Positions 48,640-56,190 of a stretch of DNA of 64,000 nucleotides are shown piece after piece; the first letter of the stretch is position 1, and every line of letters begins with the position of its first letter. The notes below the pieces were generated by a model that saw only the letters and a program-made list of their open reading frames with translations, was not told the origin of the DNA and ran no database searches. This stretch comes from an uncultured archaeon (GTDB lineage: Archaea > Asgardarchaeota > Thorarchaeia > Thorarchaeales > Thorarchaeaceae). A program made the translations under genes and the position numbers. The DNA is taken from positions 64,001 to 128,000 of the forward strand of contig CAZLEV010000002.1 in NCBI GenBank assembly GCA_964558645.1. The letters are read 5' to 3'.

Positions 48640-49230
48640 TCACCCTTCCCGCTCGCGCCGAAGCTCCTTCTGCAAGGACATTTCATCGAGCTCTCTCATT
48701 CCCTGGTTGTATTCCTCGGTCAGCTCGAACTCGGGAATCAAATAGTGCCATCTTACTAGTTTGCCATCCTCAGTTGTGAAGAAATCGGCTACATGGCCCT
48801 CGACCATTGGTACAGACTTCGCTTCAACTCCTCTTGCCCTGAGCGTTTCCAGAAGGTTCGTTGTTCTTATCGTTCCAAGATCATCTTCGGTTTCTTGCTC
48901 TCTGAGTATTCTTATGATCTCCTTCTCGATCTCAGGCAGTTGCTTCAGTTCTTCAGACTCTTCCTGTGTGAGCTTCCGGCAGAACCAGATGAGCGGTCCA
49001 ACCTCTACGCCTCTCTCATTGTGGCGATAGTCAATGGTCTGGTCGATGAGCCAATTGTCCAAGGCATGCCGGATAGCCTGATTTGCCAGATTATTGTCGT
49101 CTAAGTCACTCTCGGCACGAATCCTATCAGTCAGAGCTTGTTTCAAGTCCTCAAGAGGTAGTCCTCGTTTGTCGCATGAATCCAACAAATCCATGAGATT
49201 CGCCACAGCTCTATCCAACATCTTACTCAC
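48640..49230 (-). CDS. Double winged-helix-like protein, intact copy (element core gene 3)
   Basis: 196 aa with two helix-helix-helix-hairpin units by eye; GTGA overlap with the upstream gene; two paralogs in the island. Confidence 0.75.
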   Translation of the reverse strand: MSKMLDRAVANLMDLLDSCDKRGLPLEDLKQALTDRIRAESDLDDNNLANQAIRHALDNWLIDQTIDYRHNERGVEVGPLIWFCRKLTQEESEELKQLPEIEKEIIRILREQETEDDLGTIRTTNLLETLRARGVEAKSVPMVEGHVADFFTTEDGKLVRWHYLIPEFELTEEYNQGMRELDEMSLQKELRREREG

Positions 49231-52200
49231 GAATAGATTCCTCCCTTCTGGATTTTAACTCCTCGTCTAATCAGCTCCGCCCTTATCTGCGACACCTGCT
49301 CGTGTCTCTCTTCCAAGTAACCACTAAGTAGCCTTCTCTTCCTGACATCATTGGGAGGAGCAATGAGAGCCAGCCTGATCATATCGTCGATAGTTCTAGT
49401 GCGAGCATACCATGAAATCGATACCCTATCGCTCTTGCGCATGAGTCTAAGAGTGCCTGGAGAAATGGCCACCTTGACCCCCAGTGTGGCGGCGATGTCT
49501 TGCATGTTCTTTACCAGTCTGTTCGGATTCTGCATGATTTTCTCTGCGATGCTTAGAGCAAGCCTACTAGTGACCCTGTCCGCGGACTTGGCAAGTCTAT
49601 CGATATCACCCCATTCTAGGCTCCAGCATTTTCTCCTCGGTTTTCCAAACTCTTTGATGAGTGCTACCTCCTCGTTGTCGAGGATTGGCTCGAAGTCGTA
49701 GGCCTCCCTCTTGTTCCCTGCATTCAGAGCATTGGAGAATGTCCAAGAGATTGCCCTCGGCAACACCGTGCCATCCTGTGGAATCGAGTCCTCGATGATT
49801 GCGCAGAGAGCCTCCCAAGACTCCCGGAACAGTGAGAGGTCTATCTCCGGATTGTGAATCGTCTTGTCGCCTGTGGGTAGACCAAGTTCCTGTAGTACCC
49901 GTCCAATCACGGCAGGAAGATGAGCGATGTAGCAATTATGGTCTTTCCGCCACTGAGGGTCGAGAAAGACTTCACCTAGCCTCTGTACGGTCCGTTCAAA
50001 GATCTCGATCCGCGCGATTTCAGGCTCATGGTAAGCTACCGCAGCGGTCTTCTTCAGACTCCCATCGCAGACTATCGTCGCGATTACCCTTGCCCAGATC
50101 ACCAACAGGTCCTCTCTAGAGGGAAACTTCGGATTGGGGATACCACCCATCCCATTCTCTGTTGTGATCTTTGAAATCTCGCCCTCAAGATCGCGGATCG
50201 ACCGATTCGATACACTAAGAAGAAACTCAAGATGGTCACCGCGGATTCGCATCTTGGTGATGTTGACTCGCGGGACCTTGTGCGGACCGAATACATCGTC
50301 CATGAGACGCTCGAGTCTCTCAGCAGTGCTCCGCAACTCGCCGCCTCTGTTTCCGGTAAGAGCCTCCTTGACATCCGCGAGCAACGACGCAAAGGAATTG
50401 ATATCGTTGAAGTAGAAGAACTGGTCATGGTACATATGGAGCAGGCTCATCCGATCGGGATTCAGCTCGAACTCGAGAACCTCCCGTTCACTGATTCTGC
50501 GGATATATCGCTCGGTGTTCTCAAGCCTTCCCTCTAGGGGAAGTCTCAGTTTTCTTTGCCGATACCACTCCTCGAGAATGCGCTCCTCCTCCTGTCGCCG
50601 TAGGTCAGAGATGTCACGTGGTTCCGTATCTCGCAGCCACTGACTGATTGTTGTGTCGGACACCTCGTACTTCAGTGCCAAGTCCTTTTGTAGGGTCTCC
50701 GGTTCGGCTAGCACACTGAAGTACTTCTCGCACAGCTCGTAGTCGACCTTCTTTTCCCGCCCGTGTCTGGCCGCCAGTTTCCGTACATCGCCTGTTGACT
50801 CGATACAGACCTCAGGCGGCCCACCATTGGCCCCTACGTACAACCGTTTCAGCTCCAGTCGATGAAGTTCGCTCAGGAAACTAGGGACTTCCTCTTCTCT
50901 TGCCCATCTACGTATCTTCCTCACAGCTATGTTGTGCTCCTCTGCGAATCCCTTTTGATTGACCTTGCCCTGTTCCAGGGACAACTTCAGTTTGAAGAAC
51001 ACGCGCACGTCATTATCTCGATCATCGAAATCCAGTCGAAATCTGAGATGCTGATGCCGTGCAAGGGACTCCTCGTACTGCCGCTCTGTGACAATGATAC
51101 AACGCTTGTCCCAAGAAAGATTCTCAACTGACTCAAGAGGATTCTCTCTCACACCTGCGCCAGAGTTGCCAGAGAGATTGTTGAGCTGACCTAAGAGAAT
51201 CTCTGCCCAACGCCGTTCCACCTCCAAGTTCCAGATGTCCTTCACAAGCTCGGGTGCGTTGGCGTCGTCTGCGAGTTTCTCGAGATTCTCTCTGTCAATC
51301 CCGAGCTCCTCGGACAGCTCATCAAGGCCTTCGGGGTCTTCCAAGTTCTCAAGCGCCTCTCTCACCCGTATGAAAGTCTCTGCATCCCGAATCTTCTCAT
51401 CTTGGTCATCGTCGTCAATCGACTCTCTGTGCATCTTGAGATGCTTCTCTAGGTCTTCTGTCTTCATGGAATCCTTGATTGCATTCCGTATCTGTTCCTT
51501 CTCCTCTTCGGAAAGTTTGTCAAACTCCTCCTTAAGCACCCTCCTGAGGCGTTCCTCTCGCGTTTCGGGGAACATCGACGGCCACACAGGGTCGCCGTCA
51601 GGAAACATAGTTGAGCGTCCTCCGAATCGAGTAGTGTGTTCATTGTGGGTGTTTCTTCTATCCCTGTTAGCCTCGTCCTCGTCGACTGCATCCTCTCTCT
51701 CCGATGTGTTCTCAGTGGGAGCCTCTTCCCTCTCCTCAGTGGCATTCTCGCATTCCGCTACATCAGTCCCAACATCAGGTTCAGGTGATTCTGCCTGCGT
51801 GGCATCATCCCTCGAGTTCTTCTCGGGCTCCATTCCCTCAGGAACTTCCATGCCTTGGGGATTCGGGGTTTGCTTCTCCTTAGACCCCATATCCTCTTCA
51901 ACGGTTCTGATATCGTCTTCCTCGGCCTTCTCCGGTGCTTCCTCCGAAGTGTCTCGTTCTTTCGACCTTTTGTCTCCCTCACTCTCTTCGGATACCTCGC
52001 TCGATATTTCTTCGGAAACCTCTTCACTTGTCTTCTCCTCAGTACCAATCTCTGAATCCTCAGTCTGCAAACGCTTCTCAGTAGCCTCCTCCGGATCTGC
52101 GGTGCTCTCAACCTCCATGGTGACTGTGACCTGCTGGCTCCCCGCATTCTCCTCCACATGGTCTTCATTCCGCTCCGATTGATCAGTGTCTGATTGCTCG

Positions 52201-55600: not shown

Positions 55601-56190
55601 CCGCTCATCCGCACGGCCCTGACTATCTGATAGAACATCTCGGCACGATGGATCGCTTCCTCCCTTGTGTCACCGTCCGCCACATACGTGCTGGGTATCT
55701 GCGTCACCTCCACACCTCCAAACACCTTCTTGCTTCTCCCGATGAGAGCTGCAAGCGCCCTGCCAACTCGTTGGAGTATGCTCCTGCCTGTGGTGTCCTT
55801 CGAAGCCGCCAGAATGGAATGCTTGCTGTGTACGTAGAATGGGAAAGAAACCAAAGCGGTTCCCACCCCCAGAGGGGCAGAAACCTTCTGGAATGCGACC
55901 AGACAGTCCAGAACCAATCCATTACTGCGTTCAAGCATCAAGGTTGACAGGAACAACACAGCCGTTAAGGGCGTGTATGTCTGGGCGGTGGGCTTCATGA
56001 GATTTGCTCCACATACCCACTTGTCAGATAACCGAAAGAGTCCGGTCATGACAGACGTATTCCAGAGGGCGGGTGCAAGCGCCAAAAGGGCTACCGCAAT
56101 GCCCATAGCCGCCATCGGGAGCAATCCGGAGAAGAACTGTGCTCTTGCCAGACTATCGACTCTGTCTGGCGTTCCTCGTGGTTTCAACAT
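52648..56190 (-). CDS. Membrane-anchored HerA/VirB4/TraG-like ATPase (core gene 1)
   Basis: N-terminal hydrophobic segments, HVEVFGDTGSGKT, LRFNP, LVLEEAHH, LRESRRNGLGVVILDQLPS. Confidence 0.85.
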   Translation of the reverse strand: MLKPRGTPDRVDSLARAQFFSGLLPMAAMGIAVALLALAPALWNTSVMTGLFRLSDKWVCGANLMKPTAQTYTPLTAVLFLSTLMLERSNGLVLDCLVAFQKVSAPLGVGTALVSFPFYVHSKHSILAASKDTTGRSILQRVGRALAALIGRSKKVFGGVEVTQIPSTYVADGDTREEAIHRAEMFYQIVRAVRMSGIPFGFMLKRTVGKLRLIYLTYAEDTSELRNRVWKLHNILSSSLKGFTLTTHNELVIDEQSPRDAEVTAYLDGPLAPVQVGQEAADGLTIAIGYLRSIGAGSIQVLVEPARPSRWKLNGLKRDFEYATGRASRTVSHTGGGLLRQNNHESVTFTDIDASNEAKDLTMQIRRHEATDACKASISVTCEEYTRSIAEQCARDILAAIMGRVRPSSERTGLSIKTKKNNNTLRALANGRQPPNWTLMVPEEIVPVMVIPPIDLGLEVVNRARFVTGKTQSAENPPAETPRRRTTPPQGAGRFSLGSELDESGAKVGPVHFALEDMVRHVEVFGDTGSGKTSTVKRILSSVNGSKIPFLVLTPTLTDDYVSLADKIPSLRFFTPGDEQTAPLRFNPHEFSEGVLVNTILADVKAAYIASAPSIGIVREYTEMCIDNSFERCQYDRDHNDHGHAVLMSDLLDSVVHLECDVLEYSDRQNQDLIGALRGRFRSLMSGPLYRVFNTLTGMTVEELVSAPTIIALDGLSADERALFASLLVVNVARYFQAKALEMAEAKPLQFLLVLEEAHHFLVRTGERSVDEEHAARSHAIRSIVEVLRESRRNGLGVVILDQLPSSLDEHAMSLPVTTILHRLSTGVDRRTIAMKLDLNEEQLKMVGSLPVGHAIAKFAGDGQPMYISVHPPPKRVPVRAGTKTSLRDWVRERMAQVYKEYPAISVGLSNPFVFLETSESPTGASVEIDLRVAWNVVSFARSDFLVKNYIPFLRRKKIILLTKLAELLWVVLERITGDSISEPFVSLFLQVLRPDNMEESEAARHEILVDELWAHFGRRQLDFQEQLYEERITVLLKVVDEYSSHVDRRISIPFRDIVQEELALLKKKWNASEVAEQEEAPTAQPTEQDLDAETQRFFLAAIETHSFSSMYYESLREAVDGDFGKIRRMLIRFAEKFGPEGCNAHHVAKWLFERAVVILDAPQDVLMAESIRRAIQGTA

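Follow-up and report, generated by a model that had tools for sequence, protein, structure and literature searches.

How does a string of defence genes come to lie behind a tRNA gene when no integrase is recognisable beside it? The question is raised by a stretch of 64,000 nucleotides from an uncultured archaeon of the Thorarchaeaceae (Asgardarchaeota; assembly GCA_964558645.1, contig CAZLEV010000002.1, positions 64,001 to 128,000 of the forward strand), which we call the window. It contains an island of about 29 kb that starts at a tRNA-Arg gene, continues with three tightly packed, overlapping genes, here named A, B and C, and carries defence genes behind them. The initial annotation, made from the letters without database searches, had read the three genes as the core of a mobile element, namely a membrane ATPase of HerA/VirB4 type, an acidic protein with helix-turn-helix (HTH) and LAGLIDADG features, and a double winged HTH (wHTH) protein. 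Together they were proposed to form a tRNA-targeting module for the transfer and integration of defence cargo. On balance we favour the reading that A-B-C is the backbone of an undescribed family of tRNA-linked islands in Asgard archaea, and that its mobility enzyme is B and not an integrase.

B has the fold of a LAGLIDADG homing endonuclease

The candidate starts of gene B lie around the stop codon of A, some of them overlapping the end of A. The protein is acidic, as had been noticed earlier, with residues 30-480 consisting of 33% Asp plus Glu. The HTH assignment stands for the region at about 540-692, which is common to the relatives including those encoded by stand-alone B genes, although the Pfam matches in this protein are only weak. 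The remaining ~460-aa domain (residues 700-1161) aligns across loci at 25-35% identity and shows two LAGLIDADG-like motifs in the alignment, ARLxAxxxSDCHL and EDLIPEDG. A word-index protein search gave only 5 relatives of B; the exhaustive profile search used instead gave 677 clusters at E<1e-3, of which 239 reached E<1e-30. In all of them the domain lies at the C-terminus, and the N-terminal parts ahead of it vary widely in length.

Curated sequence models were silent on this domain. Pfam LAGLIDADG did not match protein B at E<=1, a PDB sequence profile search with B gave no LAGLIDADG protein and nothing meaningful, and neither PADLOC nor PHROGs matched the nuclease domain. The AlphaFold2 (AF2) model of B (predicted local distance difference test, pLDDT, 84.6) has LAGLIDADG proteins only as its top fold matches in both Foldseek and VIA-align. 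With VIA-align, the Z scores were 14.5 for the TliVMA intein endonuclease, 13.9 for I-Tsp061I (root-mean-square deviation, rmsd, 2.8 over 183 residues), about 13 for PI-PfuI and PI-SceI, and 12 for I-DmoI (rmsd 2.6 over 172 residues). Over the LAGLIDADG enzymes the rmsd spans 2.6-2.8 for 172-191 residues. As modelled, B is a monomeric two-domain LAGLIDADG fold in which both catalytic acids are kept.

Among the fold matches is also WhiA (Z 12), a bacterial transcription factor with LAGLIDADG and HTH parts. It raises the alternative that B, like WhiA, does not cut DNA but binds it as a regulator or to select the target, in which case an unrecognised recombinase of the element or the host would move the islands, for instance one of the unassigned ORFs or host recombination at the tRNA-end repeats. 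WhiA proteins have lost the LAGLIDADG catalytic acids. In B, these acids and several polar residues are invariant or nearly so among 151 representatives, which were drawn from clusters at 50% identity: D883, the acid of motif 1, is Asp in 150 of the 151; residue 980, the acid of motif 2, is Asp or Glu in all of them, with Gly next to it in 142; R901 and G913 show no variation. Since the acids are kept in nearly all relatives of B, the pattern is that of an active enzyme and not of a WhiA-like scaffold. Further evidence on this alternative comes from the bounded elements described below.

B is the constant gene and is lodged at tRNA ends

Across 58 loci compared, A was followed by B in 21-22, B was followed by C in about 15, and B occurred without A in about 30, many of these loci coming from related genomes and not being independent. 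More than 20 loci have the A-B(-C) order, and they belong to many genera in two Asgard families. B was present in 51 of the 85 genomes of the host family and in 14 of the 19 of the second family, in multiple copies and often at contig ends, and strong A homologues were present in 12 of 24 sampled genomes of the host family. Elsewhere in the genome of the window there is another A-B-C set (C2:298408-305845), together with orphan C genes and two B genes that stand alone. A search for related loci with a single B protein reached a same-genus metagenome-assembled genome only. A-linked B proteins do not separate from stand-alone ones on the B tree, which marks B as the constant core and A and C as add-ons; B is the sole gene common to all members. 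The proposed gene order is thus conserved, whereas the three-gene core is not obligate.

The linkage to tRNA genes, also proposed earlier, is apparent in the relatives. The stop codon of B lies at most 45 nt from a convergent tRNA 3' end in 10 loci, with at least five different tRNAs. At locus L042 the tRNA end follows the B stop by 3 nt, and at L094 B and the tRNA share 18 nt. Four loci have the module just upstream of a tRNA and in the same direction, and in most other lineages the 3' end of B or C abuts a tRNA. The A-linked B genes of L041 and L042 stop against the same tRNA as their stand-alone sisters (L079, a locus of the window's own genome, and L094). In the second Asgard family, two conserved protein genes take the place of the tRNA, and stand-alone B genes lie convergent to one or the other and just past its stop codon; these protein-gene-linked loci are L101, L103, L105 and L112 on the one hand and L099, L107 and L108 on the other. 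The target classes cluster on the B tree, with 19 label changes, whereas 200 shuffles averaged 26.4 and never came as low, a contrast that is inflated by kinship.

Besides the window, two loci with B or a protein in its position are bounded by copies of tRNA ends. At L090, a 33-nt repeat of the tRNA 5' end encloses 2.2 kb with B alone. The element at L028 spans 9 kb between direct repeats of 57 nt from the tRNA 3' half, with 3 mismatches between them. It has four genes, for proteins of 633 and 153 aa, for A, and for a 923-aa multi-HTH protein at the B position whose stop is 4 nt from the tRNA. This 923-aa protein has a weak TnsD match (24.8 bits, below the cut-off of 32.4), which, together with the fact that many island ORFs have no family, would fit the WhiA-like reading of B. 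The bounded elements speak the other way: no other gene is common to all members, and the 2.2-kb element has room for B only. With the acid conservation added, we regard a non-cutting B as quite improbable.

Two other arrangements were considered and rejected. A split integrase of the SSV type does not apply, as the attachment (att) sites of L028 interrupt no gene, and B does not sit inside a tRNA intron, as the downstream tRNA copies are complete. At L076 (5830-8080), an inverted copy of the tRNA promoter and of the first 31 nt of the tRNA precedes B and points into it, as if it were driving B expression. L135 (C6:1671-8160), where the tRNA is followed by a remnant of the B C-terminus (1837-2046, with an internal stop) and a C-like gene (7541-8320) contains a tRNA-end copy, is a decayed member of the same element family. 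Upstream of a stand-alone B at L116 (6413-6592, C2:404413-404592) there is a sequence of ~180 nt with copies of 73-91% identity on many same-genus contigs, possibly a small repeat family similar to miniature inverted-repeat transposable elements.

No recognisable integrase accompanies the elements

Families of integrases, capsids, Rep proteins, primases, relaxases, type IV secretion systems (T4SS) and Ced proteins were absent from the island ORFs scanned (>=150 aa), which agrees, for integrase, relaxase, capsid and Rep/primase, with what had been read from the letters. There was no Pfam integrase match in the island or in L028, and neither PF00589 nor PF00239 matched in the related elements scanned. 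In the window's own genome, PF00589 matched once, on contig C1, and no resolvase match exceeded the curated cut-off. Three of five other module-bearing genomes were without a PF00589 match, and the other two had none on the element contigs. Two further B proteins in metagenome contexts had housekeeping neighbours or a C gene beside them, and no integrase. The observations named in the initial annotation as speaking against it, namely homologues out of synteny or without tRNA linkage, or complete relatives that always carry a standard integrase and match a known family of integrative elements or proviruses, were not made; on the element contigs examined, PF00589 gave no match.

These results bear on the explanation that the island is the remnant of a conventional integrative element, i.e., an integrative and conjugative element (ICE), a provirus or an SSV/pTN3-type element, whose integrase was lost or split beyond recognition. 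The tRNA 3'-end target, the tandem att copies and the decayed gene copies of the window would all suit such a remnant. Yet the backbone is intact, recurring at 87-92% nucleotide identity in other populations and at the protein level in distant genera; the scanned ORFs include no integrase fragment, and capsid, Rep and T4SS families are equally missing; and three related module-bearing genomes go without PF00589 altogether. We consider this explanation very improbable.

C is predicted to cover the catalytic face of B

Gene C, which overlaps B in GTGA, had no family in Pfam, NCBIfam, PADLOC or PHROGs, and the protein atlas gave nothing at or above 0.9. In its alignment a helix-Gly-helix unit occurs twice in similar form, and the C-terminal helix is acidic and conserved (YLIPExEKTEEYK); judged from the alignment, the reading as a double wHTH protein is plausible. 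Co-folding of C with B(700-1161) gave an ipSAE of 0.82, compared to 0.00 for the best of three controls. The mark set for this score was reached by 58 of 80 solved complexes and by 2 of 110 mismatched pairs, counts that apply only approximately here, since our own alignments were used. The runs agreed in at least 88% of contacts, with a partner pLDDT of at least 86. The predicted interface involves model residues 184 and 281-283 of B (i.e., D883 and D980-T982) and the C-terminal helix of C, which supports a placement of C over the catalytic and DNA-binding face of B. If the model is right, C probably holds the nuclease in check.

A is a HerA-clade ATPase paired with nuclease-type genes

The product of gene A has an N-terminal hydrophobic anchor, a conserved N-domain at about 130-470, a HerA-type P-loop ATPase at about 490-900 and a C-terminal domain at 910-1180. 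Pfam DUF87/HerA matched at 5e-07 (30.5 bits, above the cut-off of 23.2), while the NCBIfam models scored far under their cut-offs (CedD 55 vs 600 bits, HerA 36 vs 800, anti-phage HerA 34 vs 800). A profile of 27 homologues (residues 470-920), searched against PDB, matched HerA and DUF87 proteins at 1e-16 to 1e-9, compared to 0.22 for VirB4, 0.02 for FtsK, 6e-5 for DotL and 0.16 for the TraD/TrwB type. Walker A (GxxGSGKT) and Walker B (LVLEEAH) are invariant in the homologue alignment. The AF2 model (residues 470-920, pLDDT 84.5) had HerA-NurA as its top Foldseek match (4e-15), with Sir2-HerA and DUF4297-HerA also among the best; the VirB4 C-domain is a close fold match as well (TMt 0.72), though weak by sequence. 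On its sequence relatives A is thus a HerA-clade ATPase, so that of the earlier HerA/VirB4 assignment the HerA half is the better supported by sequence. The membrane part of that assignment applies to this protein and to most, though not all, of its homologues. A transmembrane (TM) scan gave one strong hydrophobic N-terminal segment here and about four in most homologues; those of at least ~1000 aa mostly have about four such helices and those of 850-910 aa have none, the anchor being absent in about a third of A homologues.

The gene that directly follows A is always B or one for another large multi-HTH protein at the B position. Wherever a nuclease domain is recognisable in the protein at this position, it is of LAGLIDADG or HNH type; the proteins following A in L029, L035 and L043 pass PF14528 (LAGLIDADG_3) and differ from B. 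A pair of HerA and a nuclease accounts for this arrangement no less well than a conjugation pump does. An IMG/VR search with the A alignment gave distant relatives only (24-25% identity), with no B adjoining. At one of these loci (L136, 4441-10998), a gene for a dynamin-family GTPase comes first, then a 202-aa ORF, then the gene of a distant A-like ATPase (1088 aa) and, overlapping it, one with weak HNH similarity (20.9 bits vs a cut-off of 21.4); the row may be a different motor-nuclease system.

The nature of A leads to the main alternative, which is that A-B-C is itself a defence or exclusion system, with a HerA motor, a nuclease effector and a small inhibitor, and that it is cargo in an island built by another, trans-acting or unrecognised enzyme. 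Much in the data agrees with it: the closest solved relatives of A include the anti-phage Sir2-HerA and DUF4297-HerA proteins besides HerA-NurA; PADLOC gave weak HerA matches for A (7.5e-16) as well as mad8 (E ~1e-15); most loci have a recognisable nuclease-domain protein after A; the distant relative of A stands behind a dynamin-like GTPase and ahead of a weak-HNH gene; C is predicted over the active site of B, like an inhibitor or antitoxin; and the neighbours are defence genes. Against it, B by itself forms 2-kb insertions between duplicated tRNA ends, A-linked B genes abut the same tRNA as their stand-alone sisters, the 9-kb repeat-bounded element consists of four genes including A and a B-position protein with no integrase, and B and C match no PADLOC model. 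We hold a pure defence role of the module to be unlikely; the defence and mobility readings are not exclusive.

The tRNA-Arg gene, its att copies and the cargo of the window

The target gene, whose features are listed in Table 1 with those of the rest of the island, starts at 56721 (GGGGCCGTAGTCTAGC...) and its CCA is encoded at 56592-56594. ARAGORN called a 'tRNA-Leu(CAG)' at 56592-56681, which is truncated and misnamed; a hand parse and a T-arm/acceptor finder identified the gene as tRNA-Arg(GCG). A second intron-bearing gene, tRNA-Arg(CCG), lies nearby at 59441-59546 and was missed by ARAGORN. Both genes have an intron after the GG of the D-loop, and the GCG gene also has a 37/38 intron. 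Rfam at its gathering score found no tRNA in the window, a miss of both tRNA-Arg genes that is due to their introns. The att core at the tRNA 3' end has four more copies along the island, all in the same orientation as the tRNA. In the genome-wide search for tRNA-end fragments, requiring a whole T-arm was too strict and 23-mers were used instead.

Table 1. Positions of the tRNA, att, backbone and cargo features of the island in the window
Feature	Position	Strand	Evidence
tRNA-Arg(GCG), D-loop intron and 37/38 intron; target/anchor gene	56595..56721	-	Hand parse, alignment, T-arm/acceptor finder
att core, T-loop to CCA of the tRNA plus ~5 nt downstream	56587..56615	-	Repeat family D3, alignment, blastn-short
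Spacer of ~400 nt from tRNA end to gene A, presumed promoter/regulatory region	56191..56591	-	Sequence comparison
Gene A, 1180 aa	52648..56190	-	Pfam DUF87/HerA, PDB profile, AF2 model, Foldseek, TM scan
Gene B, up to 1161 aa, start uncertain (52712 to ~52638)	49227..52712	-	ORF, AF2 fold, alignments
Gene C, 196 aa, two wHTH-like repeats, acidic C-terminal helix	48640..49230	-	Alignment, co-fold
REase-APAZ partner of the short pAgo, cargo	47002-48540	-	PADLOC Aga_REase-PNTD 2.5e-30
Short pAgo, cargo	45543-47039	-	PADLOC pAgo_I 1.4e-130
AbiTii-like gene, cargo	44315-45283		Pfam, PADLOC
PD-(D/E)XK nuclease, cargo	42408-43499		Pfam, PADLOC
Cargo ORFs without family (within cargo stretch 38757..45283)	41386-42225, 40500-41150, 38906-40360
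att copy, degenerate tRNA 3' end	38728..38756	-	Repeat family D3, alignment
HamB-like (Hachiman-type) DEAD-box helicase, older part of the array	35776..38733	-	Pfam DEAD/Helicase_C; PADLOC HamB 3.6e-45
Gene C paralogue, 63% aa identity	34482..35204	-	Repeats D1/D2
att copy, tRNA 3'-end fragment	31827..31855	-	Repeat family D3, alignment
att copy, 93% identical to tRNA end, bounds single-gene cassette 29487-31514	29381..29409	-	Repeats, alignment, blastn-short, 23-mer search
Decayed gene C copy, two in-frame stops, 50 nt from last att copy	27716..28306	-
Outermost att copy, island end	27637..27665	-	Repeats, alignment, blastn-short, 23-mer search

Beyond the island, host genes begin again with a Xaa-Pro peptidase gene (26393-27529) at one end and at 56845 at the other. 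The gap between the tRNA and the start of A, which had been estimated at about 400 bp, measures 404 nt. The defence cargo expected behind the module is present (a short prokaryotic Argonaute (pAgo) with its partner, an AbiTii-like gene and a HamB-like helicase) and varies between relatives; the genes behind C are exchangeable defence cargo. The class I short pAgo gene overlaps that of its partner, a restriction endonuclease (REase)-APAZ protein, so that the two make up a SPARDA-like pair in an Asgard archaeon. The HamB-like gene has no recognisable HamA adjoining, and its annotated start overlaps the att copy at 38728. Many island ORFs match no family, several membrane ORFs among them. In the window, ORF 12768-14537 weakly matches the A profile (1e-08); it belongs to a row of large co-oriented ORFs (9362-15839) that is probably the host HerA-NurA-Mre11-Rad50 operon. 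Actin is encoded in the same genome (438 bits), which marks the host as an Asgard archaeon.

Backbone and cargo differ in their conservation between populations

A same-genus genome has tRNA-A-B-C at 87% identity, including the spacer between the tRNA and A, followed directly by the C paralogue with no cargo between them. Its island measures 14 kb compared to 29 kb here, and the two outer att copies are common to both. The tRNA-A-B-C backbone was also found on contigs from three other studies (marine sediment, freshwater sediment and microbial mat). Two microbial-mat contigs (run X4) depart from the window sequence exactly at 48640, the end of C, and one contig of the same run is without 242 nt of the tRNA-A spacer (joint 56339 to 56582). 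Two freshwater-sediment contigs (X3) depart at att copies, with joints 38733>56592 and 40372>56592, although their sides of only 23-24 nt make this weak evidence. The cargo at 40656-47959 was uncovered in X3 and nearly so in X4, although this is no proof by itself. The sequencing runs were available as contigs only, in which excised circles or rare empty sites are not detectable. In the search for an empty site, a third genome of the genus was found to be without the locus. A seemingly clean 2.2-kb insertion of B at C2:409940-411760 was rejected, since comparison to a sister genome shows a replacement of 183 nt, and part of the stretch reads N.

Proposed mechanism

In the mechanism that we favour, B would recognise the att core, a stretch of some 25-30 bp where the tRNA gene has its 3' end, and cut it. 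The element would then enter at the cut, carrying its own copy of the tRNA end, either through repair from an element-bearing donor, as in homing, or through joining of a cut circular form. As the element brings its own tRNA end, the tRNA would stay intact and the displaced old end would be left behind as a repeat. Repeated events of this kind, together with exchange at the repeats, could build up the cassette array. C, lying over the face of B with its acidic helix, would restrain the nuclease. A, presumably a hexameric dsDNA motor of HerA type, would work on the DNA cut by B, either in cell-to-cell transfer or in resection, such that long cargo is copied along. The role of A is the weakest step, and the evidence points both ways between support of resection and co-conversion on the one hand and DNA transfer on the other: the frequent membrane anchor speaks for DNA transport, the constant pairing with a nuclease-type gene for a HerA-nuclease machine. 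Of the module for transfer and integration that had been proposed at the outset, the gene order, the tRNA linkage, the cargo and the missing integrase are thus retained, whereas B alone is constant and A is by sequence of the HerA clade.

Several observations weigh against B as the mobility enzyme. Integrase-type, conservative site-specific recombination classically leaves direct repeats of tRNA ends behind, and it is a reaction that no LAGLIDADG enzyme is known to perform; a trans-acting or unrecognised recombinase behind the repeats is possible. The LAGLIDADG fold can, as in WhiA, be that of a pure DNA-binding regulator, and pairs of HerA and a nuclease are typical of defence systems, in an island that is itself a defence island. 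The start of A faces the tRNA in the window and its closest relatives only, and B touches no att copy here. Inverted tRNA-end copies occur at L041, L042, L076 and L100, and no simple insertion model fits them. A third tRNA-anchored island (L134, C2:426185-432973), 6.7 kb long and with a perfect 23-nt tRNA-end copy, is without B, A and C; its contents include a TnpB/Cas12f-like gene and an ORF of 1527 aa without family. The kinship among the compared loci counts here as well, and the runs, which consist of contigs, gave no sign of cleavage or excision, of a circular form or of an empty site.

A bolder version is that B is a new integrase-equivalent, which would cut att sites on the chromosome and on excised DNA and thereby insert, excise and shuffle whole elements and single cassettes, with C as the switch and the membrane-bound HerA protein moving the DNA between cells, thus yielding the integron-like arrays free of integrase in Thor-type Asgard archaea. 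We regard this version as possible but doubtful.

Comparison with known systems

LAGLIDADG homing endonucleases, including I-DmoI, I-Tsp061I and the inteins PI-PfuI, PI-SceI and TliVMA, share the fold of B (Z 12-14.5) and, like it, have two helices that each end in a conserved acid. SegB of phage T4 is a free-standing homing endonuclease gene located beside tRNA genes. Like such free-standing genes, B is lodged against conserved genes, its choice of target following phylogeny. Unlike the homing endonucleases, B has no Pfam LAGLIDADG match and is found in neither an intron nor an intein; its ~460-aa domain has extra N- and C-terminal subdomains, with tandem HTHs ahead of it and, in this protein, a 450-aa acidic region as well; duplicated tRNA ends flank B, which is often accompanied by a HerA-type ATPase, a small partner and up to ~10 kb of cargo. 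WhiA, as B, combines a LAGLIDADG fold with an HTH, whereas B keeps both acids, has its HTHs on the N-terminal side, is multi-copy and patchy in occurrence, and is linked to tRNA ends.

The integrative and conjugative elements of actinomycetes (AICEs) use a single FtsK-like transfer protein, TraB. Archaeal integrative elements of the SSV/pTN3 type have been reviewed (PMC8371274), and tycheposons are a further group of tRNA-targeted elements (bioRxiv 10.1101/2020.12.28.424599). All three insert at tRNA 3' ends, with duplicated tRNA-end att repeats, cargo-only segments in tandem and defence cargo, as do the islands described here, and TraB resembles A in being a single membrane DNA-motor protein. 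In contrast to them, the Asgard islands have no tyrosine or serine recombinase and no Rep, the motor is of the HerA clade and not of the FtsK clade, and the LAGLIDADG nuclease is the only conserved DNA enzyme.

HerA-NurA, Sir2-HerA and DUF4297-HerA are the best sequence and fold matches of A, which is likewise encoded directly upstream of a nuclease gene. A differs from these machines in its scores far below the curated cut-offs, in the approximately four N-terminal membrane helices of most A proteins, in its N-domain of 340 aa and C-domain of 270 aa, and in its partner, which is a LAGLIDADG protein and not NurA, Sir2 or DUF4297. No described anti-phage system was fully matched with PADLOC 2.0, where only A matched, and weakly. 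A literature search found no description of integrase-less islands bounded by tRNA ends in which an HTH-LAGLIDADG core goes together with a membrane ATPase of HerA type and a partner predicted to cap the nuclease; the initial annotation, too, did not recognise a described element family. The parts have known relatives among LAGLIDADG homing endonucleases, HerA motors and tRNA-targeted islands; the combination, not found described, is new to us, and it would be categorically new if a LAGLIDADG enzyme indeed performs the integration.

Asgard archaea are the closest known prokaryotic relatives of eukaryotes, and to our knowledge almost nothing is known of gene movement among them. The module offers a testable candidate for the missing enzyme of integrase-free, tRNA-anchored arrays of defence cassettes, and the large B family adds predicted HTH-guided LAGLIDADG nucleases that no curated model recognises. 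If our reading of B is right, homing endonucleases drive gene mobility at the scale of islands, beyond their own spread, and these proteins would be natural nucleases for long sites with a built-in inhibitor. If A-B-C is instead a defence system, it would represent a new HerA-nuclease-inhibitor type.

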